A stretch of DNA of 64,000 nucleotides from Candidatus Velesiimonas alkalicola (GCA_013626165.1 NDHX01000005.1:26875-90874), one strand, 5' to 3'; numbered from the stretch's first letter, positions 958-58,915 are shown. Numbers and translations are program-made. Notes: a model not told the origin generated them from the letters alone.

Positions 958-1031
958 TGGCTGCCCGGCGAGGACTCGGACCTCGAGTAACGGCTCCAAA
1001 GGCCGCTGTGTTACCATTACACTACCGGGCA
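958..1031 (-). tRNA. tRNA-Gln (anticodon UUG)
   Basis: The reverse complement reads TGCCCGG TA GTGT AATGGTA ACAC A GCGGC CTTTGGA GCCGT TACT CGAGG TCCGAGT CCTCG CCGGGCA G CCA. U1:A72 plus discriminator G73 are the Gln identity set, and the anticodon is TTG. Confidence 0.75.
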
Positions 1032-1136
1032 AGAAAATTTTGGCTGTTTTTTCTTAGGAGAGCCTCTTGCATGACCGCCCCACCTAACCCCATTAGACCT
1101 ACCTGTCGCGGGCAGGCTCGTGAAACTTAAAAAGCA

Positions 1137-1262
1137 ACTGATGCACTACTGGTGCTCTGATGCTCTGGTGTTCTAATGCTCTGGTGTTCTGGTGTTCTGC
1201 CTGTCTGCGTGCTGTAGCACAGCACAGGCAGGGTGCACTGGTGCTCTGGTGTTCTGGTGCAT
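1137..1262. repeat. Tandem heptamer array, unit CTGGTG(C/T)T on this strand (complement of GCACCAG). It has an internal palindrome GTGCTGT-AGC-ACAGCAC and ends with the 35-bp block CTGGTGCATTTGAAATTAGTGGGATTGGGGTTGTGCA.
   Basis: Repeated ctggtgctctg / ctggtgttctg units are seen directly. The same terminal 35-mer recurs at 35244-35281. Confidence 0.8.
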
Positions 1263-1386
1263 TTGAAATTAGTGGGATTGGGGTTGTGCAATGGGCTCTG
1301 TTACACAAACTTACTACAGGATTGTCAAAATCAGCACCACTTATCAAACCACCCTTTTAAATTTCTTTTATTTCCCTGCATTCTTT

Positions 1387-13573: not shown

Positions 13574-14098
13574 TTGATTAAAAAATTTCAAGACAGGATA
13601 CAATCATAGTCAGAGACAGCAAGGTTTTTTGTGGCTGATAAATTTTCAGATACTAACAAAAACAATTAAATAGCCGAAAAGTTGAATGGGTTAAGCTAAG
13701 AAGCGACGGCGGATTCAGGAGGCTTGAAACTGTTTTGAACCACTTGAAAATTCCACACGAAAAATTGCCACAGCAGAAACCCCAGCAGTAGAACACTTCG
13801 CGTTCATTAGGGGCAGGGGCGGCAGGACAAGACAGAGCATTCCTCAAATTTGTTTTGGTAAAGCTCAAGGGGTTAAACCCACTCGGCCAATCTTGCGATT
13901 TCACAGGGGTTTCACCCCTTTGAATTACCCCTTAAACAATGGGGAAAGCCTTCTTTCTTCTCAATCCTTTTCTGGTCAGGGGTGGTAACCTTTCTCAAGT
14001 CAGGGGGATACTCAATGCAATCTATTTTCTGCGTTTCACTCAATATCTTTTATCTTTTTTCCTACCTACTACCTACTATCTCCTATCTCCTATCTTTT
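13574..14098. ncRNA. Structured noncoding region adjacent to tRNA-Ala: a possible small RNA of unknown class. Strand is not resolved.
   Basis: ~520 bp with no credible ORF. A promoter-like TTGATT...TACAAT sits at 13574-13604. Multiple GC-rich hairpins are present (GGGGTGAAACCCCT, GGGGCAGGGGCGGCAGG). The segment is GC-richer than its AT-rich surroundings. Confidence 0.25.
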
Positions 14099-16826: not shown

Positions 16827-16928
16827 GGAGTTTTGCCCTTGAGCCGTGAAACCTTACCTGCCTTCGTGAAGATTAAAGAGCAACTGGTGCTCTGGGACAC
16901 CCTGACCATTGATACTTGAAAAAATAAT

Positions 16929-23363: not shown

Positions 23364-23639
23364 TTTCTAAAACATTTCAATTAGAAATGTAAAAATTCCT
23401 GTCTGCTCCTAATACAAATCTGGGTAGTCGCCAGCGTGCGCAACGGGCAGAATGTTTTTTCTCATTCCTGATGAGGACTAAATTTTTAGGTTTTACTTTT
23501 AGAAAAAAATTATGCATACTATGTAGAAAGATACCATGCATTTTTAAAAGAACATGCTATACAGAGTGGCTGAAAATATAGGTGACCGGTAACATATTTA
23601 GTCCATAGTCAATAGTCCATAATCTACGGACAATGGACT

Positions 23640-26122: not shown

Positions 26123-26171
26123 GCACCAGGGCACCAGTGCACCAGGGCACCAGGGCACCAGGGCACCAGTT
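26121..26171. repeat. Tandem heptamer/octamer array GCACCAG(G/T), about 6.5 copies, starting at the ridA stop codon
   Basis: gagcaccagggcaccagtgcaccagggcaccagggcaccagggcaccagt, read directly. Confidence 0.85.
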
Positions 26172-26209
26172 TATACCATGTCTTTTTCTATTTCTCCAAA
26201 AAAAGTACT

Positions 26210-27587
26210 GTTATAAAATAGTGATATGTCCTATTTCTTAACAAATGAAATGTCCGCTTTCAAAGCGGGGAATGATAATATGTTTGGCCTAATCAAGGAG
26301 GTTAGGTATGCAGACATATTATCCAAAACCCGCACTGGAGCGGGCAATGAAGGTTCAGGAGGTCATATTACGGGCTATAAGCGGACAGATTCACTGGATT
26401 CAAGCGGCAGAGATATTAGGCATATCAGACCGGCAGATGCGCCGGTGGAAATGGCGCTACGAAAAACACGGTTATGACGGCCTATATGACAGGCGCAGGA
26501 AGATACCAAGCCCCAAAAGAGTGCCTTTAGAGACCGTGGAAAAGGTCCTGCGTTTATACAGGGAAAAATACTTCGATTTTAATATGTCCCATTTTTACGA
26601 TAAGTTACGAAAAGAGCACAATATAAAATTAAGTTATAACTGGATAAGGCTTGCCTTACAAGGCGCCGGACTCGTTGAAAGACGCCAAAGACGCTCTCCC
26701 CACAGAAAACGCCGAGCAAGGAAGCCCCTAATAGGCATGATGCTCCACATGGACGGTTCTCCTCATGACTGGTTCGGTAACGGCTTAGAATATGATATCG
26801 TCACTATATCGGATGACGCAAATAATGAGCTCTACGGCATAGAACTGGCAGACGAGGAGGATTCTCTTACCTGCATGTCTCTTATCAGGAACCTCATCGA
26901 GAAGAAAGGCATATTCTGCTCGTTATACACAGACAGGGCAAGCCACTTCTTCCTTACTAAAAAGGCAGGAGAAGACGTCTCCAAAGACAACCTTACCCAA
27001 ATAGGAAGGGCCTTGCAGGAATTAGGCGCCCAGCATATCCCTTCTTATTCGCCGCAGGCAAGAGGCAGATCAGAAAGACTTAACGAGACCCTACAAGGCA
27101 GAATTCCTCAAGAACTAAGGCTAAGAGGCATAAAAACAAAGGAAGCCGCCAATAGATACCTAAAGACAGAATATCTCAAAGAACACAACAGAAGATTCGC
27201 AATAAAGCCAGAAGGCGAAGGCAGCGCCTTTATCCCGGTACCTAAGACAACGGATTTAGACAAGATTTTTTGCTTCAAACACGAAAGGACCGTCAACAAC
27301 GATAACACCATATCGTTTAACAACCGGATACTCCAAATAGGCCCATCAGAACTTAGGGTATCGTTCGCCAAATGCAGAGTTACTGTCTATGAACATATAG
27401 ATGGCTCTGTGACTATAGGATACGGCCCTCATACGCTTGGTTATTATCCGCCCAAAGGCTTATCCACATATCCATACAATTCACAAAAAGAAAAGGTAGC
27501 CAAAAGAAAAAGGACTACTACTAACATTAACCAAAAGCGGACACATCACTTGTTAGAAAAAGCGGACATCTTGACTATTTAATTACA
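26210..27587 (+). mobile_element. Intact insertion sequence (~1378 bp) with imperfect terminal inverted repeats, flanked by a 17-bp direct repeat TCTCCAAAAAAAGTACT (26193-26209 and 27588-27604)
   Basis: A perfect 17-bp direct repeat brackets the element. Termini are GTTATAAAATAGTGATATGTCC (left) vs the reverse complement of the right end, TGTAATTAAATAGTCAAGATGTCC. It holds a single long transposase ORF. Confidence 0.75.
26308..27582 (+). CDS. Transposase, rve (retroviral integrase-type DDE) catalytic core with N-terminal HTH. It is IS481-like or ISNCY (IS1202-group)-like.
   Basis: 424 aa. DDE candidates lie in HMDGS (D), LYTDRASHF (D, ~60 aa later) and SERLNETLQ (E, ~39 aa later). The N-terminal segment ILGISDRQMRRWKWRY looks HTH-like. 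Confidence 0.75.
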   Translation: MQTYYPKPALERAMKVQEVILRAISGQIHWIQAAEILGISDRQMRRWKWRYEKHGYDGLYDRRRKIPSPKRVPLETVEKVLRLYREKYFDFNMSHFYDKLRKEHNIKLSYNWIRLALQGAGLVERRQRRSPHRKRRARKPLIGMMLHMDGSPHDWFGNGLEYDIVTISDDANNELYGIELADEEDSLTCMSLIRNLIEKKGIFCSLYTDRASHFFLTKKAGEDVSKDNLTQIGRALQELGAQHIPSYSPQARGRSERLNETLQGRIPQELRLRGIKTKEAANRYLKTEYLKEHNRRFAIKPEGEGSAFIPVPKTTDLDKIFCFKHERTVNNDNTISFNNRILQIGPSELRVSFAKCRVTVYEHIDGSVTIGYGPHTLGYYPPKGLSTYPYNSQKEKVAKRKRTTTNINQKRTHHLLEKADILTI

Positions 27588-27951
27588 TCTCCAAAAAAAG
27601 TACTTGACAAGATTTAATTTATGTGGTACATTTGAAATTCAGAAGAGACACAATAGGTAGTAGTTATCATTTTAATAAACATAATGGGATGGAGGGAGAA
27701 ACCCAGAACAGTGGAACCAAACTGATTTTAAGATTTCCTCTTGGGATACAGTATTTGAAAATTAAAATGTAGAATCCATTATCAGATTTTGAAGGATGAA
27801 TAATGGAGGATGTTTTCCCGCTGCAAATGGGTTGTTCTTGCCTTCGCACTGTTTTAAGCTATTTAACTATATTCAGGGTTTTTGTATTCTAAGAGGAATG
27901 GAAAAGGGGCTTTTATAAGGTCCCTTTTTGTGTTTTTAAGGAGAAAGCAGT

Positions 27952-32761: not shown

Positions 32762-33042
32762 GTGTGCCTTTTATAAATTTAGGCGATGTATTTTTGGTCT
32801 CCTGTGGGTACACTTCTACACTCAACAATAAGTTTATATCCAGAAGGGAAGGCATTTAGAGGCACAGTTTTTGCAGAGAAACTTTCCATTATCCTTCCAG
32901 AAATAAAAACTTAAGAGCACATTATACTCGCCCCAATAGTCCGTGGACCATATTCCGTATACCGCATTCTATAAAAGATACTTACGACGATATACGAACA
33001 AAGGTTTTCCCAGGCACATGTCCGCCTGTTCTATTCAGGGAC

Positions 33043-34920
33043 TTACTCACAAAGTTGTTTTTCCGCATCCACAACATCCCTGTTAAAATAGTGTATTGTA
33101 TCTTTCAATCTTTGTTTTAGTCCATCTGAAAGTATCGGAGAATTATGGATTTCTCTTAAAACTTGAATACTCATCCTGAAATATCTTATTACATCCCCTT
33201 CATCTGTATCTGTCCATTGAAAAAGATTTTGAAATCCTGCCCCTTGAAGCCACATATGTGTTGCCTCTGCAAGGTGAAAATGTGCTTGTTTGCTTTTCGG
33301 ATAGATCCTGTATTTTGATTCAAGATAGTTTATTTTTTTATAAAAATTATCGCACATCTGTTTTAGGGCGTTTATTTTTTTTGATAGAGGTTTTTCTTTT
33401 TGATGTTTTCTTGGTTCAAATACAATGGCATTGGCTAATATCCCGAGAGAGAGTTTATCTAATTTTTCAAGTGCACCTTTTTCATACAATTCAGAAAGTA
33501 AAATCTCATAACTCGGAACACTTTTGGCAAATATACCTTTATCGGTAAGAGTGCCGTTTTTTATATTCAGACTTTCTTTAAGGCAGTTTATTTTATCTTT
33601 CATAAGGCGGGTTGTCTCCTTGTGTTGGTATTTTTTGGTTTGAAAATAATGAAGCGAAGATGGATATATATTCAAAAAATTTTCTCCATATCTCTGATAA
33701 AGGTTAAGAAGTGTTGAATAGGATGCGTTAAACTGGCTTTTTACCTCTTCGGGATTTCCGTAAATTATCCGTTTTATATTGTCAGGGGTTGTATAGCGAG
33801 GATTTATTCTGCAGTACACAGACCCTTGTTTGTCCATGCCTCTTCTTCCTGCTCTTCCGGCCATCTGATAAAAGTCCCTTGTTTTCAGGTTCTCTATTCT
33901 GTTGCCGTAAAACTTTTTAAGCTCATCAAATATAACCGTTCTGCTGGGCATATTTATACCAAGTGCAAATGTTTCTGTTGTAAATATTATTTTAAGAAGC
34001 CTGCTTGTGAATAATCTTTCTATGGTTTCTTTAAGTGTCGGAAGCATCCCTGCATGATGGTATGCTATGCCTTTCTGAATAAGCGGATAAATCTGTTTTG
34101 CCGATGGTTCATCTTGTAGTGAAAATTTTTCACACAGTAAATTATACATTGAAGATATCTTCTGGCTTTCATCGGTTTTAAGAAAATTATGGTGAATAAG
34201 TTCAAGTGCAAGACTTTCAGCTCTGTTTCTTCCGAATACAAAATATATACAAGGAAATCCTTCAACCTTCTGTATATATTCAATCAGTGAGTTAAGCCTG
34301 TTTGGTGCTTCTCTGTTTGTACTTTTTTTTAAGACCTCAATGTTGTTATATATTTTATTGTGACAATAGAAATAAAAATGAAGAGGAACAGGCCTCTTAT
34401 GTTCTATTACAACTTTTACTTCTTTTTTATGAATAGTTTGTATCCACCTTGCAAGATGGTGGACATTGGGAATTGTTGCAGAAAGTGCAAGTATGTTCAT
34501 ATGTTCCGGAAGGAATATAAAAGATTCTTCCCACACAGTTCCTCTTTCAGGATTGTCTATGTAATGGACCTCATCAAATATTATCCAGGAATATTGTTTA
34601 AGCGCATGTGCTTCTTCAAGAACTTTGTTCCTGAATATCTCTGTTGTCATTATCATAACAAGCGATTGAGGGTTTATTGAAACATCCCCTGTAAGTATGC
34701 CTACGTGTCCTGGGAACTGGGATTTAAAATCCCTGAATTTCTGGTTTGAAAGAGCCTTCAATGGGGCTGTATATATTATACCTGTTCTATCCTGAAGACA
34801 TTTTGAGATAAGATGTTCTGCAATAGCAGTCTTACCGGCCCCTGTTGGTGCAGAAACTATAACAGATAAACCGCTATTGAGATGTTCAATTGCCTTTTTT
34901 TGAAATTCGTCATAAATCAT
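33043..34920 (-). CDS. Ski2-like DEAD/DEAH-box superfamily II helicase
   Basis: 625 aa with Walker A (APTGAGKT), DEVH box and helicase C motifs (QMAGRAGRRG). Confidence 0.8.
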   Translation of the reverse strand: MIYDEFQKKAIEHLNSGLSVIVSAPTGAGKTAIAEHLISKCLQDRTGIIYTAPLKALSNQKFRDFKSQFPGHVGILTGDVSINPQSLVMIMTTEIFRNKVLEEAHALKQYSWIIFDEVHYIDNPERGTVWEESFIFLPEHMNILALSATIPNVHHLARWIQTIHKKEVKVVIEHKRPVPLHFYFYCHNKIYNNIEVLKKSTNREAPNRLNSLIEYIQKVEGFPCIYFVFGRNRAESLALELIHHNFLKTDESQKISSMYNLLCEKFSLQDEPSAKQIYPLIQKGIAYHHAGMLPTLKETIERLFTSRLLKIIFTTETFALGINMPSRTVIFDELKKFYGNRIENLKTRDFYQMAGRAGRRGMDKQGSVYCRINPRYTTPDNIKRIIYGNPEEVKSQFNASYSTLLNLYQRYGENFLNIYPSSLHYFQTKKYQHKETTRLMKDKINCLKESLNIKNGTLTDKGIFAKSVPSYEILLSELYEKGALEKLDKLSLGILANAIVFEPRKHQKEKPLSKKINALKQMCDNFYKKINYLESKYRIYPKSKQAHFHLAEATHMWLQGAGFQNLFQWTDTDEGDVIRYFRMSIQVLREIHNSPILSDGLKQRLKDTIHYFNRDVVDAEKQLCE

Positions 34921-35050
34921 GTATAATATTATAGTTTAAAAGATTGATTTATGGCAAGAAATTTGTAAAATATAAATGTAAAAGGGCAAGAAATGAAGAT
35001 TGTGTGTATGTAAAGGTAAAAACAAATTCAAAAAATGAAGGTCGGGTAGG

Positions 35051-35290
35051 ACAGAGCACCAGAGCACCAGTCACCAGAGCACCAGTTGCTCCTTAAGTTT
35101 CTAATGGGGCCTGCCCCGACTTGTCGGGGAGGGATGTCTTTTTCCATCCCCCAAAAAAAATTAAAAAAAAGTATACGAAAGATTAGAAAAGATTAGAAAA
35201 GGCTACAAAGGTCAGGTGCCCTGGTGCTCTGGTGCGCTGGTGCACTGGTGCATTTGAAATTAGTGGGATTGGGGTTGTGCAGCTGTCTTA
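35051..35290. repeat. Composite repeat. A GCACCAG array (35051-35088) is paired with an inverted CTGGTGC array (35213-35250) around a ~125-bp core. The core holds hairpins (CCCCGAC-TTG-TCGGGG) and a GATTAGAAAA x2 tandem. It is followed by the 35-bp block shared with 1226-1262.
   Basis: All seen directly. The terminal ctggtgcatttgaaattagtgggattggggttgtgca is identical to the copy near 1226. Confidence 0.8.
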
Positions 35291-37183: not shown

Positions 37184-37566
37184 AATATTTATTATATTTT
37201 ATGGAAGAAATATTACAATAAATTTTCAACAACAGGGTAGAAAATTCAAAAATCCCTGTCTACAAGACAGGTTAAGGGCAGGTACCGCAGGCAGGGATGT
37301 TTTTCCCATTCTCAAACAAAGATAAAAAAGTATTGACAAAATTTAAGTTATATGATAAACTTATAACAAGTGGGGATTTGTATGATATATGATATGTGCA
37401 GTGTAATAAATAATTGTTTAAGTTGCTATTCAGGTTATTTAGGCTGTGGGCTATAGGCTGTTAGTATTTTTTGTTTATACTTACAGTCTAAATAACCTAT
37501 GGTCTATTTACCTAAGTGTTTAATGCGTTTTTTATATAACATATCACATACTTCCATTGGAGTAAA

Positions 37567-47726: not shown

Positions 47727-47800
47727 GTCGCCCGTATTTCGTATTTCGTCGTCCATATTCCGTATATCGTATTCCATAAAAAACAGACGACGGGATACGA
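47727..47800. terminator. Extended hairpin (CGCCCGTATTTCGTATTTCGTCGTC ... GACGACGGGATACGAAATAC) with internal CGTATTTCG / TATTCCG repeats, then a partial CCAGTGCTCTGGTG motif
   Basis: Inverted repeat seen directly between the cysteine desulfurase gene and the TatD-like gene. Confidence 0.4.
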
Positions 47801-47828
47801 AATACCAGTGCTCTGGTGATATGGTAAT

Positions 47829-50199: not shown

Positions 50200-50386
50200 G
50201 AATAGAAATGTCAAATATCAAATATCAAATATTAAATATCATTACACATAAGGTTCTGTGATGTGGAGGTGTCCTGTGTATTATATAGGAGACCTTTTTA
50301 TTAAATCTTTATAATTTAAAATTTATTCAAAATTGGAAATTAAAAATTCCTCACCTCTACTACCTACTATATTTTCGGAGGGGTGG

Positions 50387-50902: not shown

Positions 50903-51748
50903 ATGGAAAAGAGACATCGACAACATCTAAAAACACGAAAAAGTCCGCCCTTTAACCTTTTATCCAAGGGACAAGAGGATACGGCAAAAGTGGCTTCGAA
51001 TATTGTGTGGGAAACAATACTTAAAAAATACCCACACTTAGATTTTAATAATCTTGAGACACTGGGTCTTAAAGACTTGAAAGCTGGATATGCTATTGCG
51101 TATATAAACCGAGGCACAAAATTAGTCGGTTTGCCAGAAAGAAAACCCAAAGAATTACAAGCCTTCGACTCCGCAGACGGAATTAAACCTGATGGCGGTA
51201 TATTTTTTGTTCAATCAAAAAAAGATAATTTTAACCATATTATTGGCGCGCTTGAAGTAAAACATCAAGGAGAATATGACGGATATACGCCAATTAGTGA
51301 CGCCGATTGGAAGAAGAAAGGCGGCGACCCTTCAATTCCAAGAGAGAAAAGACCGCCTCAAGCACAAGGTAATGCGATAGAGAGATTTGCTAAAAACGCC
51401 AATGCCATAAAAACACTAACCAGTTTTTATGGCTACAATCCTTATATTGTTTTTACTGAAGGGTTTGACTTTTTCCTTAAAGATGATTTCAAGATTTTTG
51501 AAAAACAACCGCATTCTTCCCGTTTCAAAAACAGAGATTCTTCGATTCTTATGAGGTTGATAGCTGGAAATGATTGGCTTCCGCTCAATAGGGTATATGT
51601 TGATTGCTTGCAGCACGGTAATACCCAAATCTGCCCAGCGACAATTTTTGCTCGAATGTCAAAATGGAGCGCAGAGGAAATCGCGAAAATTATGTTAGTA
51701 GTTATCGATAAATCTCTTGCGCGTCTACGCAAACTTGATGAGATTTAA
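50903..51748 (+). CDS. EcoRI-family type II restriction endonuclease
   Basis: 281 aa with DGIKPDGGIFFV, EVKHQGE and AQGNAIERFAKN, which correspond to EcoRI motifs (SIKPDGGI, EAKHQG, AAGNAIER). Confidence 0.75.
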   Translation: MEKRHRQHLKTRKSPPFNLLSKGQEDTAKVASNIVWETILKKYPHLDFNNLETLGLKDLKAGYAIAYINRGTKLVGLPERKPKELQAFDSADGIKPDGGIFFVQSKKDNFNHIIGALEVKHQGEYDGYTPISDADWKKKGGDPSIPREKRPPQAQGNAIERFAKNANAIKTLTSFYGYNPYIVFTEGFDFFLKDDFKIFEKQPHSSRFKNRDSSILMRLIAGNDWLPLNRVYVDCLQHGNTQICPATIFARMSKWSAEEIAKIMLVVIDKSLARLRKLDEI

Positions 51749-52944
51749 GCAGTTTTCTTTTCAAGAATCCAAAGCAATTCTTTGACTTTTATATCCCTAT
51801 CGCGCAGATTTCTTGAGCCGCGATAAGTGTTATAATCTTGCTCCATTAGTTCCCATTTCCCGTATTGCGAGAGAATTTTTTTGAAGACATCAATTGGAAT
51901 TATTCCCTCGTCGTTATAGGAAATCGCAATAAATTTTGCCCGAGTACCGGCCAAGAGTTGATCCATCGCATCTTCGGCAATCTTTCTTTTGTTATACGCC
52001 GATCTGTTCCATTCTTTTGCTATACCGCTTACACCATCTTGTATTCCCACTGGCTTACCGCCATTGATAATATTAAGCATAAAGTAATTCGAGCCATAAG
52101 GATGTTGATTATAGGGTGGGTCATAATAGACTAAATCAAAGAATGGAATATTTTTGTCTTTCACCAGTTCATTTACATCTCGTTTGCAAACAAACACAGG
52201 ACACTCAAAATCAGAAAATTCAGGCACATCAAGCGAAATTTCTTTTTTAATACGAGAAAGAGCGTTTTCCCCCCGTCCGCCAAAATGTCCATTGCCGTTG
52301 TGCTTATGAAATCCCTTAAACACGCCTGATGTGTTTGTGTGGATAGACGCTTTTACCAAAAGCGAGGCGAGACAAAAATGTTTATATTTTCTTGGCACTT
52401 CATCAATCAGTTCCCGTAAGTTATCTATAATTTTTGCGTTTTTGTTTGTGTAAAATACTCTTTCTCCTTGTTGGACATTATTATCATTTTTTGGAGCATA
52501 ATTTTTTTCTATAAATCCAATATCATTAGCTTTAAGTTTTAATTTATTTTCGTTGAGCCAATTTATATATTTTTCTAATTCTTTTATATCTATTTCTGAT
52601 TTATTAGCAAGATAAGCATGATTTAATGTTTCGGCGTAATCTTCCAAATCGTTTACATGAAGTTCGCTCGCAAATGCTTTTAACAAGCGAGCCGCCGCAC
52701 CACTTCCGACGAAGCCATCTAGTATAACCATTTTTTGCTTCCCTAACTTTTCCCTGATTTTCAGAAATCCTTTATACAGAAAAGGCAGTAGCCGTCGTTT
52801 ATTGCCAATATAGGTAATAAGATGGGAAGTAAAAAATGGGCTCTGTAAGTCTAAATTTTTTACAGGGTCTGAAGGAAACAAATTCAATTTCGATTGTGGA
52901 TAATGTTTCGATGGCATATTTTTTCTGATAACTTTAGTATACAC
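51745..52944 (-). CDS. Dam-like (D12-class, alpha) N6-adenine DNA methyltransferase of R-M system A
   Basis: 399 aa: YIGNKRRLLPFL...ILDGFVGSGAAARLL...NDLED...DPPY. The order matches Dam/EcoRV-type MTases. Convergent with, and 4 bp overlapping, the REase gene. Confidence 0.75.
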   Translation of the reverse strand: MYTKVIRKNMPSKHYPQSKLNLFPSDPVKNLDLQSPFFTSHLITYIGNKRRLLPFLYKGFLKIREKLGKQKMVILDGFVGSGAAARLLKAFASELHVNDLEDYAETLNHAYLANKSEIDIKELEKYINWLNENKLKLKANDIGFIEKNYAPKNDNNVQQGERVFYTNKNAKIIDNLRELIDEVPRKYKHFCLASLLVKASIHTNTSGVFKGFHKHNGNGHFGGRGENALSRIKKEISLDVPEFSDFECPVFVCKRDVNELVKDKNIPFFDLVYYDPPYNQHPYGSNYFMLNIINGGKPVGIQDGVSGIAKEWNRSAYNKRKIAEDAMDQLLAGTRAKFIAISYNDEGIIPIDVFKKILSQYGKWELMEQDYNTYRGSRNLRDRDIKVKELLWILEKKTA

Positions 52945-53250: not shown

Positions 53251-53462
53251 CACAAAAATTGGTTGCTTTATTGTTTTTAATATTTCTGAAATAAATTCTA
53301 TAAAACTTTATCATGAGCATAGAGGGCGGGATGAATTTTTTGTCTTTGTCCCGCAAAGCAGAACGTCAGAAGCGGGCTTTTCTTTTTCTTGATTGTTTTG
53401 TTTTTATTTGTTATCATATACTTGTATAGAATTATAGCAGAACAATTTAATGTTATCAAATT

Positions 53463-53675
53463 ATGGAAAATAATCAAGAAAATAAACTGGGAAAAAAGAT
53501 AAAATCATTTCGGCTTAAACTTGAACTTTCACAGGACGAATTTGCCAGAAAAGCTGATATTCCTTACACCACGCTAACTAAAATTGAAACCGGCGTTATT
53601 AAGAAGCCATCGGTTTTTGTTATGGCAAAAATCGCCAAAGCACTGGGTGTTTCGATTGAGGATTTAATAAAATAA
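53463..53675 (+). CDS. Controller-type HTH protein (XRE family) of R-M system B
   Basis: 70 aa with LSQDEFARKADIPYTTLTKIETGVIKKPSVFVMAKIAKALGVSIEDLIK. The last ~50 nt are identical to gene 56183-56389. Confidence 0.7.
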   Translation: MENNQENKLGKKIKSFRLKLELSQDEFARKADIPYTTLTKIETGVIKKPSVFVMAKIAKALGVSIEDLIK

Positions 53676-53679
53676 AACT

Positions 53680-54348
53680 ATGAAAAATTCATTTTTAAGA
53701 GCAATCTCAAAAACATTTCGAGCTTACAATACTTTCGGTGCTAGAAGTAATAAAAAATTAATTCCTGTACATAAATGGTTTGCCGAGGTCATAGAAAATA
53801 AATTAGGGAAAGGATATTCGGTTAAAAGTTTAGGGAAAGACGGAGAATTTAAAATAGATGGAAAATACTATCCAAAAACACTAGACATTTCTATTTTTAA
53901 AAATCAAAGAATAATTACGACAATTAGTTTTAAGTTTGTTACCTCAAATTATAAACAGAACTCAAATAATTATTTCGAAAACTTACTTGGAGAAACCGCA
54001 AATATAAGACGAGTAAATGTTGGCTTCGCCCATTTTCTAGTTTTGCGAGCTCGCACCCCCTATTATGATAAAAATAAAGGCAGCCTGAGAGGAAAAGAAA
54101 AGAAGATAGAAATTTTAAACGAAAATGATTTAGTAAAATATGTTAAACTTTTTAATGATTTGGATTTCCCGCACAAACCAGAAGTGTTAGGTATGGCTAT
54201 AATAGATTTTGATAAACGAGGATGTGCTTATTTTGAAAACTTAAAAAATTTAGGGCTGACAGAAGAAACAAAAAATATTTTAGAAAGTCAATTATCAGTA
54301 GAAAATTTCATTGGGAAAGTAATAGCGTTGTGTAAATTAAAATCCTAG
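53680..54348 (+). CDS. Putative type II restriction endonuclease of system B (family not recognised by eye)
   Basis: 222 aa ORF. It starts 5 nt after the C gene stop and ends 4 nt before the MTase start. No similarity to housekeeping families is recognised. Confidence 0.45.
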   Translation: MKNSFLRAISKTFRAYNTFGARSNKKLIPVHKWFAEVIENKLGKGYSVKSLGKDGEFKIDGKYYPKTLDISIFKNQRIITTISFKFVTSNYKQNSNNYFENLLGETANIRRVNVGFAHFLVLRARTPYYDKNKGSLRGKEKKIEILNENDLVKYVKLFNDLDFPHKPEVLGMAIIDFDKRGCAYFENLKNLGLTEETKNILESQLSVENFIGKVIALCKLKS

Positions 54349-55905: not shown

Positions 55906-56182
55906 AAATTGTGTAAAGTTTTAAAAATATTTTTTAAATAAATATGACACCAGAATCGGCAGGGCCGAACAATCCGCCAAAGGCGGATTAGAAAAACTTG
56001 AAATCGTCGCCTCGCTGTGCGAGGCGCAAACCGCCGAAAAACCTGAAAAAATGTCGGCTCAAACTTTATTTTGGCCAGAAGCAGGCTTTTTCTCATTTTT
56101 TGTTTGATTGTTTTTATAATATTTGTTATCATTATATTGAAAAGATAATATATCACTTACATACTATCAAATTATTGAAAAT

Positions 56183-56389
56183 ATGGCAACAGAAATCAAC
56201 ATAGGCGAAAATATAAAGAAATACCGAAATAAACAAGGATTATCTCAAGAGGATTTTGCTAAGAAATCAGGCGTAAAATATACTACCCTGACTAAAATTG
56301 AGAGCAATGTAATAAAAAAGCCGTCCGTGCTTGTTATGGCGAAAATCGCCAAAGCACTGGGTGTTTCGATTGAGGATTTAATAAAATAA
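56183..56389 (+). CDS. Controller-type HTH protein (XRE family) of R-M system C
   Basis: 68 aa with LSQEDFAKKSGVKYTTLTKIESNVIKKPSVLVMAKIAKALGVSIEDLIK. Its C-terminal DNA is identical to gene 53463-53675. Confidence 0.7.
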   Translation: MATEINIGENIKKYRNKQGLSQEDFAKKSGVKYTTLTKIESNVIKKPSVLVMAKIAKALGVSIEDLIK

Positions 56390-56394
56390 AAAAT

Positions 56395-57027
56395 ATGTCA
56401 AGTAAAATAATAGAAATTTTTAACGATGAAAAGTTGATAGATAAAATTAAGAATCGCCTGCCACATTTATTTCAGTTAGCGGAATTAGAAAGCTCAAGAG
56501 CTGGGAAAATTGGAATGGAGGTCGGTTCTTTGCGCGAAAAGATTATTACTGCACTGCTTATTTATAAATTTGGGAAAGAAAATGTTGAGACAGAAATCCC
56601 CATAACCGAATCAGAAATTGATGCTAACCTTTTTGGAGCCCCCATCTCTATTAAAACAATAACCGGTACTAGATTCGGAGGAGTTAAACTAGTTTGGACG
56701 GTTGATGCCAAAAAAGCAGACGAATTTCGTAAAAATTATGAGCCCAGTTACGATATATTGTTTATACAAATTAATTGGGGAAGCGTAGGGGGATTTTACT
56801 ATATTCCATTGGAATCTCAGCGAAGGTTGTTCGATCGAATAGGGAGAGAAAATTATATTCAACTTCCAAAACCGGGAACAAACCCGAGAGGAGCGGAGAT
56901 TACTAAAGAAGCGCTATCAAGTTTAGTTAGAGACAAAGATGCCAAGACCATAGAAATACTATGGAAAAAGACAACAATAGAGTTTAACCCATATAAAAGA
57001 TGGGTAGATTACTGGAAAGAAGATTAG
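56395..57027 (+). CDS. Putative type II restriction endonuclease of system C
   Basis: 210 aa ORF between the C gene and the MTase gene in the same tight operon layout (5-nt and 1-nt spacers). Confidence 0.45.
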   Translation: MSSKIIEIFNDEKLIDKIKNRLPHLFQLAELESSRAGKIGMEVGSLREKIITALLIYKFGKENVETEIPITESEIDANLFGAPISIKTITGTRFGGVKLVWTVDAKKADEFRKNYEPSYDILFIQINWGSVGGFYYIPLESQRRLFDRIGRENYIQLPKPGTNPRGAEITKEALSSLVRDKDAKTIEILWKKTTIEFNPYKRWVDYWKED

Positions 57028-57028
57028 T

Positions 57029-57949
57029 ATGATATACCATAATTATAAAAGAAAAAATGGAACGCAAACCAGCGCCTTTGGTGCACCAGGTCGAATTAAC
57101 CATGACTCGTCAAAATTTTATAACAGCAAGCTTTATGAGGGGTTAAATAATGGAAAAGATGTTGAGTATGTTGAAAATCCAATTGAACCGCAAAATATAA
57201 ACAAAGTTTTTTGCAAGAGCAGTGAGGCAATGATAGAACTTCCAGATAACAGTGTTCATTTGATGGTCACTTCACCACCTTATAATGTTGGTAAAATGTA
57301 TGATGAAAATTTATCCCTCAAAGAATATAGAGAGTTGCTAAAACGAGTATTCAAAGAAACATACAGGGTTTTGGTCCCCGGCGGTAGAGCTTGTATAAAT
57401 ATAGCAAATTTAGGCAGAAAACCATATTTGCCACTTCACAGTTATATCATAGAAGATATGCACGCTCTTGGTTTTTTGATGAGGGGCGAGTTGCTTTGGG
57501 ACAAAGGAAGTAGCGCAAGTTCTTCAACAGCTTGGGGAACTTATCTAAAAGCAAACAATCCGGTATTGCGGGATGTCCATGAATATATTCTTGTTTTTTG
57601 TAAAGATACATTCACTCGTTTAAATCCGCATAAAAGAAAAAGTACCATTTCAAAAGAAGAATTTTTAGAATTTACAAAGAGTGTTTGGAAATTTTCCGCA
57701 GAGCGAGCTTCAAAAGTAGGCCACCCCGCTCCTTTTCCAGTTGAACTACCTTATCGCTTAATCCAACTTTATACTTTTGAAGGCGATGTTGTCCTTGACC
57801 CATTTGTTGGCGCCGGAACTACTTGCATTGCGGCACTAAAAACCAATAGAAAATATGTGGGTTATGATATTGATAAACAATATTGTGATTTGGCGGAACG
57901 AAGAATAAAACAATTTTTACAAGAACAAACGACATTATTTTCGAAATAA
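57029..57949 (+). CDS. Beta-class DNA methyltransferase (N4-cytosine/N6-adenine, SPPY motif; MethyltransfD12/N6_N4_Mtase family)
   Basis: 306 aa with motif IV VTSPPYNVGK upstream of motif I VVLDPFVGAGTT, the beta-class order (IV before I). Confidence 0.8.
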   Translation: MIYHNYKRKNGTQTSAFGAPGRINHDSSKFYNSKLYEGLNNGKDVEYVENPIEPQNINKVFCKSSEAMIELPDNSVHLMVTSPPYNVGKMYDENLSLKEYRELLKRVFKETYRVLVPGGRACINIANLGRKPYLPLHSYIIEDMHALGFLMRGELLWDKGSSASSSTAWGTYLKANNPVLRDVHEYILVFCKDTFTRLNPHKRKSTISKEEFLEFTKSVWKFSAERASKVGHPAPFPVELPYRLIQLYTFEGDVVLDPFVGAGTTCIAALKTNRKYVGYDIDKQYCDLAERRIKQFLQEQTTLFSK

Positions 57950-57965
57950 ACCAAACGTTCAAACT

Positions 57966-58019
57966 ATGGCGAAAATTGCCAAAGCGTTGGGTGTTTCGAT
58001 TGAGGAGTTATTAAAATGA
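57966..58019 (+). pseudogene. Remnant of a fourth controller gene: only the last 17 codons (MAKIAKALGVSIEELLK*) survive, overlapping the start of the downstream ORF
   Basis: DNA atggcgaaaattgccaaagcgttgggtgtttcgattgaggagttattaaaatga is near-identical to the 3' ends of the C genes at 53463-53675 and 56183-56389. Its TGA overlaps the ATG at 58016. Confidence 0.7.
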
Positions 58020-58915
58020 AAACTATAAAAAGCAAAACACTCGCAATATTTGGAGTAGTAACTTGGATACTTTCGGTTGCGTCTTTGGCTAAAGATCTCG
58101 CTGGAAATTATACGGCTCCAACAGCTTTAATTGTGGTGTCGGCATTGGCAACGCTGGTATTCACGATTATGGCAGTAGTCCGATTATGGAAACCACAAAA
58201 AGTTACTGCCGTTTTGTTTCTTGTATTGTCTTTAGTTTCTCTTGTATACGTTTCGGCTCCAATCAAAATAGTTACCTTCGTTTTGTTTATTTGGGTAATA
58301 TCGCTTCTTTGGGTAATGGGGAAACACGAGGGTCTCGCCAAGAAACTTCAAAAAGATTCTGGACTTACTGATGAAGAATTTTCTGCAATGCTAAAAGAAA
58401 AACAGAAAGGCAATGATAAAGCGGTAGAGAAAATACTTGCTTCAGCGCAAGAACGCGCTAAGGCAAAATATAAAGAAGTTACAGGCGTTAATCCAAAAAG
58501 CATTGTCCCAGAAATCGGCAAGGAGATTTCATGGGCAGATATTGTAAATCATACATTCCGCGTTTTGGATTTTGACAGAAACGAAACAACTATTGATGAA
58601 AATAATCAGGTAAAAGCCAAGAGCCGGCTCCAACCGTACGGGTATTTGCTCGCAGAATCGCCAATTTTGAATAATCGTGTAAAATTGCCTATTATTCATC
58701 GTGATGATTTTCTCCTTGCCGCAAGCGTATTTGATGAACCAAAATTGGCGGCTATGGTTAAAGACGAAGAATTGCTTGTAGTTTACTCGCCAAAACATTT
58801 AGGGCCAAAAGGGTTATCCGGTAGTCCCCACCACGTTTTACATTACGCGATTACGCCTCACGGGACATTAGACGCTTACTACTCGAAAAACAATGATATA
58901 TATGGCGAGACCTGA
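58016..58915 (+). CDS. Membrane protein of unknown function (3-4 N-terminal TM helices plus a soluble C-terminal domain), occupying the R/M position of a fourth cassette
   Basis: 299 aa with a hydrophobic N-terminus (IFGVVTWILSVASLA..., ALIVVSALATLVFTIMAVV, VLFLVLSLVSLVYV, VTFVLFIWVISLLWV) and a charged middle region. No recognised family. Confidence 0.55.
   Translation: MKTIKSKTLAIFGVVTWILSVASLAKDLAGNYTAPTALIVVSALATLVFTIMAVVRLWKPQKVTAVLFLVLSLVSLVYVSAPIKIVTFVLFIWVISLLWVMGKHEGLAKKLQKDSGLTDEEFSAMLKEKQKGNDKAVEKILASAQERAKAKYKEVTGVNPKSIVPEIGKEISWADIVNHTFRVLDFDRNETTIDENNQVKAKSRLQPYGYLLAESPILNNRVKLPIIHRDDFLLAASVFDEPKLAAMVKDEELLVVYSPKHLGPKGLSGSPHHVLHYAITPHGTLDAYYSKNNDIYGET

Follow-up and report, generated by a model that had tools for sequence, protein, structure and literature searches.

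Dispersed GCACCAG arrays in an uncultured Omnitrophota bacterium: a candidate lineage-wide family of octanucleotide simple sequence repeats

Short tandem arrays of the heptad GCACCAG, each copy as a rule followed by one free base, recur in the intergenic DNA of a 64,000-nucleotide stretch of Candidatus Velesiimonas alkalicola (GCA_013626165.1, NDHX01000005.1:26875-90874; here called the window, with positions counted from its first letter). The host is an uncultured Omnitrophota bacterium, the G+C content of the window is 37.7% and the best homologues of its Ski2-like helicase, at approximately 63% identity, are annotated as Candidatus Omnitrophota. The arrays are a real multi-copy family, far beyond chance expectation. 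We consider them, with a probability of roughly 0.55, to represent a lineage-wide family of octanucleotide simple sequence repeats of the same kind as the short tandemly repeated repetitive (STRR) sequences and the TAACTGA heptamers. The main rival to this explanation, and also the most interesting alternative, is a dedicated network of binding sites, which is plausible.

Tandem Repeats Finder detected arrays of period 8 in the window at 1149-1199, 1232-1260, 26123-26169, 35052-35086 and 35215-35252, which hold 3.6-6.4 copies. A two-unit pattern (GCACCAGNGCACCAG, at most two mismatches) matched 18 times against 0.14 expected from shuffled sequences, and the exact heptamer GCACCAG occurred 12 and 11 times on the two strands (23 in all, where about 1.5 per strand, or about 3, were expected). 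These counts bear out the original prediction, made from the sequence alone, that such arrays lie at several loci and in both orientations; the family comprises three array loci and one partial copy in the window, with both strands used. Two partial copies had been proposed, of which the one at 16868-16898 is genuine and the one at 47806-47822 is a weak match of 11-18 nt at chance level. The unit, described at first as 7-8 bp long, is a fixed heptad plus one free base; phasing of 8 bp is the rule, and 7-bp units, in which the eighth base is missing, are just occasional (at 35071 and in contig L175). The window is approximately 83% coding, yet all arrays of this species are intergenic. A sequencing-adapter or assembly artefact was rejected as an explanation, the arrays being found at the same place in at least five independent assemblies. 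Also rejected were a Chi-like site and a DNA-uptake sequence, as single heptamers hardly exceed expectation (7 against about 3) and strand bias is absent. The features of the family in the window are as follows.

1058-1139, minus strand: flank of locus 1, partly common to locus 3; TTGCTTTTTAAGTTTC, a GC hairpin, then CTAATGGGG (minus-strand reading)
1140-1199, minus strand: left array of locus 1; about seven degenerate units (AACACCAG / AGCACCAG / AGCATYAG) with a higher-order periodicity of 16-24 bp
1198-1233, no strand assigned: GC-rich 36-bp hairpin CTGCCTGT...ACAGGCAG that splits the array of locus 1; no second copy found
1230-1260, minus strand: right array of locus 1; 3-4 units
1254-1290, plus strand: copy 1 of the shared 37-nt block; the final unit, CTGGTGC, and 30 further nt, ATTTGAAATTAGTGGGATTGGGGTTGTGCA
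16868-16898, minus strand: partial copy; lies in the spacer of a comF-like gene and lptF/G and consists of 1.5-2 units with the flank TTGCTCTTTAATCTTC
26123-26169, plus strand: array of locus 2; six perfect heptads with eighth bases G, T, G, G, G, T
35052-35086, plus strand: left array of locus 3; four units, one of them 7 bp long
35087-35212, plus strand: core of locus 3, 126 bp; TTGCTCCTTAAGTTTC-TAATGGGG, two hairpins, an A-tract and a degenerate -35 region
35213-35252, minus strand: right array of locus 3; five units whose eighth bases include all four nucleotides
35245-35281, plus strand: shared 37-nt block, copy 2; an exact match to copy 1

Locus 1 is placed between the 3' end of a RACo gene (618-aa product) and the 5' end of a tRNA-Gln gene (958-1031, minus strand), from which the flank at 1058-1139 separates its array. 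The first base of locus 2 is the base right after the TGA stop of ridA, in agreement with the prediction that an array begins at that stop codon. Locus 3 sits in a 390-bp divergent region between the helicase gene and a gene for a receiver-only response regulator, and the description of two inverted arrays bracketing a hairpin-rich core of about 125 bp holds there (35052-35086 and 35213-35252, around 126 bp with two small hairpins). The partial copy matches 35074-35101 of locus 3 over 28 nt at 89% identity, the common part being GCACCAG-TTGCTCTTTAA. The latter sequence resembles the boxA of rrn operons, but a boxA-like antiterminator was rejected, since it stands beside arrays at three sites only and the other arrays are without it.

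Four exact units were found in at least 113 metagenome contigs, and a permissive scan of a genome collection with CACCAGNNCACCAGNNCACCAG gave, among the matches listed, unrelated 8-mer microsatellites of all phyla. The window species is present in four Japanese metagenome assemblies (BBPD, BBPE, BBPF and BBPG), which contributed eleven contigs among the matches listed, and in several Logan runs; the L3 protein of one same-species contig carries the NCBI name 'bacterium Unc6'. At least six further array loci are held by the same-species contigs L175/L219, L176, L211, L230 and L242/L252. Contigs L175/L219, L176, L211, L230 and L242 were taken as the same species because their tetranucleotide signature matches that of the window (r = 0.95-0.98, where five of the six chunks of the window itself agree with the rest at 0.97-0.98 and the sixth at 0.90) and because several of them have in common with the window a second repeat family (TAGGTAG/TAGATAG type, window 14060-14095). 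Arrays of this species span 3-11 units and typically fill the short spacers of co-directional genes, in one case lying 9 nt past a stop codon and 22 nt before an ATG; they must therefore be co-transcribed. Orientation with respect to the downstream gene is mixed in the same-species and other low-GC contigs (about 8 CTGGTGC to 5 GCACCAG), and in at least seven cases an array stops 17-24 nt short of a start codon, an AGGAGG-like Shine-Dalgarno site lying between. The original prediction was to be abandoned if the motif proved confined to its first sites, invariant in copy number and without relatives elsewhere in the genome; relatives were found both in these contigs and in other lineages.

Mixed eighth bases were observed in 14 of the 30 low-GC contigs but in only 6 of the 83 high-GC contigs among the matches listed (p = 7.5e-6), and the high-GC matches are as a rule uniform microsatellites with one eighth base throughout. 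Two contigs from the same reactors (L243 and L245) carry long CTGGTGC arrays and differ in composition from the window (r = 0.63-0.74); therefore at least one other organism in those reactors has the GCACCAG family. The same heptad, often in inverted pairs, was found in metagenome-assembled genomes (MAGs) labelled Nitrospinota (L010, L050 and L096), and two of these contigs (L010 and L050, from one MAG) share a near-identical composite repeat longer than 100 bp. GCACCAG arrays adjoin the hairpin module CGACCCATCC-NNN-GGATGGGYRCCCCG at about 237-251 of L230, 3160-3174 of L242, 3472 of L010 and 6693 of L050. The presence of this module in both the window species and the Nitrospinota-labelled MAG suggests composite repeats that are shared across lineages, or else mis-binning. 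Octamer arrays with a CACCAG core were also seen in many Bacteroidota (TTCACCAG; L012, L018, L028, L069, L086, L099, L101, L107, L110 and L111) and in many Acidobacteriota (GATCACCA; L002, L016, L023, L053, L064, L102 and others), often at several loci per MAG, with a core that the permissive search pattern forced.

Length variation between strains bears directly on the simple-sequence-repeat explanation. Contigs L175 and L219 are 99.47% identical over 11.6 kb, and one of their arrays has six units in the one and four in the other, a 15-bp indel of two units; their other array is identical. Three other assemblies, at 0.2-0.3% difference from the window, agree with it in the length of locus 3; locus 2 keeps six units wherever an assembly spans it, and the rplC array numbers four units in L252 as in L254. 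Over 3.5 kb, contig L121 differs from the window by four mismatches, two of which fall on eighth bases of locus 2. The proposal of a hypervariable, slippage-prone tract can thus be kept in part: the single indel suggests that the arrays are mutable, and with five comparisons unchanged they are not hypervariable. Phase-variable repeats of the contingency-locus type were rejected on the grounds that the copy numbers of loci 2 and 3 are identical in 3-5 independent assemblies and that the neighbouring genes are housekeeping genes. The arrays also show higher-order periodicity, at 15, 16 and 24 bp, and their edge units are decayed, for example ATTATTAGA|GCACCAGA and CTGGTGCT|CTAATAAT; this pattern would fit slippage followed by AT-biased erosion.

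We infer that the arrays grow and shrink by slipped-strand mispairing and that they would survive only outside genes, because steps of 7-8 bp break reading frames. New arrays would be seeded from existing ones by homology-driven copying and not by transposition, and the 30-nt block found at two loci may be a by-product of such copying or, alternatively, a shared promoter or leader. The near-invariant heptad with its free eighth base could reflect a nucleic-acid-binding factor that reads the heptad; such a candidate factor would more likely act on DNA, because both orientations occur. Any effect of the arrays on neighbouring genes is probably secondary and modest. Several points weigh against this explanation. 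Pure slippage leaves the recurrence of one heptad at many loci and in several lineages unexplained, and a seeding mechanism or a selective agent is needed. The 15-bp indel is the sole length change, in short-read metagenome assemblies in which an assembly error is possible, and no length change was seen in five of the six between-strain comparisons, likewise of short-read assemblies. About half of the low-GC arrays elsewhere, among the matches listed, have a uniform eighth base. The copy-number and orientation statistics rest on approximately 115 kb, and the contigs added to the window were chosen for carrying arrays. The contrast in entropy between unit position 8 (1.7-1.8 bits) and the other positions (at most 0.9 bits; in-phase count) comes in part from a pattern in which four core positions are fixed, although direct reading of the three loci in the window gives the same picture of a fixed heptad and a free eighth base.

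The ribosomal-protein (S10) operon provides a comparison between species. Contigs L242 and L252 cover the tuf-rpsJ-rplC-rplD-rplW-rplB-rpsS region of the window species; the tuf-rpsJ spacer contains an inverted pair of TAGGTAG-type arrays, and the rpsJ-rplC spacer (L242, L252 and L254) ends with (GCACCAGN)4, 17 nt before the ATG of rplC. In a relative (L255, 78% identity in L3) the same spacer ends with the inverted (CTGGTGCN)4, again 17 nt from the ATG; the arrays of both species lie 17-20 nt before rplC. Another GCACCAG-type array precedes rplV in this relative, and nearly every intercistronic spacer there is filled by some 7-8 bp array. Occupancy of the spacers nevertheless differs between the species, the rplB-rpsS spacer being 8 nt long in L255 and about 285 nt in L252. 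It follows that the arrays are transcribed within a core operon and turn over quickly, yet the unit is kept across species. The rpsJ-rplC spacer also contains a 64-bp hairpin segment (L252 457-520, GGTCTGCTGAAAAACTCATCAGACC...), which is present in two assemblies and absent from the third, L254, and whose junctions share AGGG.

Such conservation of the unit would also suit a cis-regulatory platform, in which a protein binds contiguous heptads cooperatively, on DNA or on mRNA upstream of the ribosome-binding site, and controls the neighbouring genes as a network. The heptad is fixed while the eighth base is free, the units are contiguous in direct and inverted order, the arrays that end 17-24 nt before start codons leave room for the Shine-Dalgarno site, the same array type precedes rplC in two species, and the heptad is kept although individual arrays turn over. 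The operators of ribbon-helix-helix proteins are built alike, omega of pSM19035 binding 7-bp heptads and MetJ binding tandem 8-bp metboxes, again as contiguous direct and inverted units with several per site. Those operators, however, overlap the promoters of a defined regulon with a cognate repressor, whereas many of the arrays described here are operon-internal and not over promoters, and their neighbours (ridA/ddl, the response regulator, tRNA-Gln, lptF/G and rplC) are without a common function. The occupancy of orthologous spacers is not conserved, the orientation mix of about 8:5 disfavours a single RNA-binding specificity, and no ribbon-helix-helix match to Pfam was obtained for the approximately 30 window proteins scanned, all array neighbours included. 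A parallel proposal exists for the TAACTGA repeats (PMC4679880). Taken together, we regard the platform as plausible but doubtful. Its widest form, in which the GCACCAG and TAGGTAG-type arrays constitute a genome-wide control layer that acts via a conserved candidate binding protein, reaches core operons (tuf-rpsJ-rplC-...-rplV) and has spread horizontally among groundwater, sediment and bioreactor lineages (Omnitrophota and the MAGs labelled Nitrospinota), is unlikely.

The sequence shared by loci 1 and 3 admits a reading as a promoter. The original prediction had both loci ending in an identical 35-mer; a shared block does exist at the two loci, and its true length is 37 nt, made of one unit and 30 unique nucleotides. 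Its first copy, placed initially at 1226-1262, is in fact at 1254-1290, 28 nt away, and an end at 1262 cuts the block. The exact match of 37 nt has an expectation of 0 by chance, and only two copies occur in all the sequence examined. It forms part of a 59-bp block with 93% identity between loci 34 kb apart, in which all four differences lie in the array part and none in the 37-mer. A 22-mer of the block had no matches in the metagenome contig scan, and a protein search for spurious open reading frames over its copies, in which all the open frames of the 37-mer were joined into one chimeric peptide, was without matches.

At locus 3 the second copy of the block ends 29 nt before the ATG of the response-regulator gene (35311), with AGGAGGG between. 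The core of this locus is homologous to promoter-upstream cassettes at 27595-27640 (just past an insertion sequence) and 37293-37380, both without arrays, in which a small hairpin (GGGATGTCTTTTTCCATCCC type) and an A-tract precede GTAyTTGACA and, 17 bp further on, an extended -10 element; in contig L230 arrays adjoin the same A-tract/TTGACA cassette. The 37-nt block itself aligns colinearly with two canonical promoters of the window, TTGACA-17-TGgTACATT-TGAAATT at 27605-27640 and TTGACA-17-TGaTAAACT...AAGTGGGGATT at 37333-37378, and may be a weak promoter and leader for the response regulator. Extended to the whole family, this would make the block a promoter and transcript start (TGgTGCATT as extended -10, an array in the -35 region and a start near GAAATTAG) and the arrays upstream promoter elements. 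The confinement of the four differences to the array part would accord with it. The element TGCATT lacks the conserved A at -11, though, and a promoter scan was empty at that place; the block of locus 1 points into the 3' end of a convergent gene, and elsewhere arrays end 17-24 nt from the ATG, too close for an mRNA led by a Shine-Dalgarno site. This account covers only two of more than ten arrays, and we judge it improbable for the family. The arrays lie 40-95 bp upstream of the -35 element wherever a promoter prediction could be made. A sigma-54 promoter was rejected by inspection, since the GG-to-GC spacing in the arrays is 11 and not 12 and that of the 37-mer is off by one or two.

Other promoter sequences were noted around this locus. 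The helicase gene has a near-consensus promoter, TTGCCA-18-TATAAT (34918-34957), and because its -10 element ends 7 nt before the ATG the predicted helicase mRNA is probably leaderless. The orthologous helicase loci of relatives (63% identity) have no GCACCAG arrays. The promoter-upstream module (GGCAG)RRATGTyTTTTyCyCATyC, with an A-tract after it, recurs at 23443-23470, 26176-26200, 35128-35150 and 37288-37315, and two of the four sites continue with GTAyTTGACA-17-TGnTAmAyT; it may be a shared upstream (UP) element/hairpin cassette. The interval 27605-27951 has a strong promoter with a TG extension (TTGACA-17-TACATT); no gene is obvious over the next 300 nt or so, and a terminator-like hairpin (27903-27937) closes this stretch just before the ribosome-binding site of ddl. 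The stretch is a candidate leader or small RNA, with no Rfam match.

That the arrays belong to a non-autonomous mobile element was a suggestion of the original prediction, which saw a MITE-like (miniature inverted-repeat transposable element) architecture at locus 3. Such an element, akin to a MITE or to repetitive extragenic palindromic (REP) or BOX elements, would have array-containing ends and be moved by a transposase in trans. The 59-bp block repeated 34 kb apart with its 37-nt exact match could be its trace, as could the inverted arrays around the 126-bp core of locus 3, an imperfect 18-nt inverted repeat at locus 1 (1059-1076 and 1282-1299), the hairpin nested within the array of that locus and the composite repeat of L010 and L050; short-read contigs also break at arrays, although breaks are expected at any internally repetitive tract. 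No direct repeats of the kind left by target-site duplication flank any array locus examined, and no strain examined shows an empty site at any array. The additional same-species arrays each have flanks of their own, unrelated between loci, and neither the 30-mer, the 36-bp hairpin nor the flank TTGCTyyTTAAGTTTC has further copies in the approximately 50 kb that same-species contigs add to the window. No terminal inverted repeats are conserved among the copies, inverted arrays occurring within the window at locus 3 only, and the core of that locus is a promoter-upstream cassette that is also found free of arrays. No match to a Y1 (IS200/IS605-type) transposase was obtained among the approximately 30 window proteins scanned against Pfam, the only part of the genome searched for one. 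These observations speak against the MITE-like architecture, and a mobile element is quite improbable.

A genuine insertion sequence next to locus 2 behaves differently. This IS481-like element (26208-27589) encodes a 424-aa transposase with helix-turn-helix domains and is flanked by a 15-bp target duplication, TCCAAAAAAAGTACT; its uninterrupted target is present in contig L121 (BBPF01000885.1) of another assembly of the species, so both a target duplication and an empty site are evident for it. Its ends are unrelated to the arrays. An insertion 21 bp beyond the array had been predicted, and the element is indeed near, with the insertion sequence 38 bp and its duplicated target 23 bp after the array.

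Pairing of inverted arrays in the transcript was considered as a further explanation, with the long stems serving as processing sites, stabilisers or terminators between cistrons. When the plus strand of locus 3 is folded, its two arrays pair (-98.7 kcal/mol, z = -4.85); weak pairing is possible between the ends of locus 1 (z = -2.98), and inverted array pairs with a short loop occur in L096, L010/L050, L153 and L220. Most arrays, however, are direct only, and a clear inverted partner was found in 2 of the 30 low-GC contigs among the matches listed. Direct arrays are no more stably folded than shuffled sequence (z = -0.7 to -1.8), with a sixth sequence, which includes a 17-nt flank, at z = -3.8, and in L220 the eighth bases are not complementary between the arms. 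Intrinsic terminators were rejected because U-tracts are absent after the stems. Only four tRNAs reached the gathering score of Rfam 15 in the window, permissive scans returned nothing credible for the three array loci, and ten related loci gave no match. An RNA structural element is therefore very unlikely. The opposite notion of an 'unstructured spacer' was also dismissed, arrays with T or G as the eighth base being partly self-complementary.

The simple-sequence-repeat explanation draws much of its weight from comparison with known repeats. The STRR heptanucleotides of cyanobacteria, reportedly described by Mazel and colleagues in 1990, are the classical example. Like them, the GCACCAG arrays have a head-to-tail unit of 5-11 nt that is repeated beyond chance at dispersed loci, and their non-triplet unit is kept out of coding sequence. 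The free eighth position and the frequent alternation between 7 and 8 bp are particular to the GCACCAG family. STRR-bearing genomes have several unit families each, as is the case here with GCACCAG, the TAGGTAG type and single-locus families. Repeats with units of 5-11 nt, most commonly heptamers, are abundant in scattered lineages, with polymerase slippage as the proposed cause, according to the account of Mrazek et al. (2007) given in PMC4679880; on that account, tandem units of 7-8 nt, many intergenic copies and slippage as the driver are features that STRR and long simple sequence repeats share with the present family.

The closest parallel described is the TAACTGA heptamer family of marine Beggiatoaceae, some Cyanobacteria and Bacteroidetes, with 169 sets of 2-6 copies (MacGregor 2015, PMC4679880). 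These sets are almost all intergenic and mostly just upstream of start codons, including those of ribosomal-protein genes; they have a patchy phylogeny and indels in 7-nt steps between close strains, and a post-transcriptional regulator has been proposed for them, with function undemonstrated (PMC4679880). The present arrays are alike in using a single short unit at many intergenic loci near start codons and in ribosomal-protein operons, in being patchy across phyla with no evident transfer mechanism, and in their apparent unit-increment indel between close strains. They differ in their unit, GCACCAG plus a free base with 8-bp phasing and GC-rich in an AT-rich genome, in their use of both orientations (about 8:5, whereas the BOGUAY repeats are mostly 'forward'), in keeping a Shine-Dalgarno site before the ATG, where the BOGUAY repeats run over the ribosome-binding site and few canonical sites exist, and in their host phylum, Omnitrophota. 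No description of the GCACCAG repeat itself, or of Omnitrophota repeats, was found in the literature searched.

Palindromic and mobile repeats are less similar. REP elements and bacterial interspersed mosaic elements (BIMEs) are made of imperfect palindromes of 20-40 bp with a REP-associated tyrosine transposase (RAYT), and pneumococcal BOX elements have variable tandem modules between end modules. All are short, multi-copy, extragenic yet transcribed, located in operon spacers and sometimes paired in inverted order, as are the present arrays, whose unit is non-palindromic, however, with no end modules conserved across loci, no RAYT-type transposase among the window proteins scanned and no sign of mobility found. 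MITEs and Correia elements are likewise small, intergenic and multi-copy, and the inverted ends at one array locus can form a long stem as theirs do; in contrast to them, no target-site duplication, conserved full-length copy or empty site was found here, and the core is promoter-upstream sequence.

Arrays of other units are also present in this lineage. The second heptamer family (TAGGTAG / TAGATAG / GGAGATA) occurs in the window at 14060-14095 and 50358-50372, and on other contigs in L176 (1-34 and 1099-1122), L188 (1-60, GAGGTAG x6), L230 (4307-4335), L242 (57-148) and several spacers of L255. It abuts the 3' end of a tRNA-Ala gene and stands just upstream of a tRNA-Ser gene; one of its strands is Shine-Dalgarno-like (GGAGGT) and has TAG in all frames. 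Further intergenic heptamer arrays (TAGTCCA, CGTATTT, AAATATC and AATGACA) were observed at 23599-23621, 47733-47773 (related to 32937-32976) and 50206-50241, at 1582-1614 of L211 and in L129 and L132, and AATGACA arrays recur in other Omnitrophota contigs. Short arrays of 7-8 bp units seem to be a general trait of intergenic DNA in this lineage. The window is otherwise an ordinary stretch of housekeeping chromosome. It includes a type II restriction-modification pair (50903-52944), formed by an EcoRI-like restriction endonuclease gene that adjoins a D12-class adenine methyltransferase gene, and three upstream regions of 100-200 bp with 73-76% identity before successive genes (53380-53710, 56100-56420 and 57944-58051), a local paralogous repeat that is also matched by 2735-2896 of L211.

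To our knowledge, heptamer or octamer arrays built on the same unit have been known since 1990, from cyanobacteria and later from Beggiatoaceae, with one unit reused at hundreds of sites. The GCACCAG family adds to these an uncultured and unrelated phylum, the signature of a fixed heptad with a free base, arrays upstream of ribosomal-protein genes and an array before rplC that is inverted between relatives. As the arrays break short-read assemblies of these genomes, they are of practical concern, and they could serve as strain markers. They also offer a concrete test system for whether such repeats are read by a protein or are merely tolerated products of slippage.

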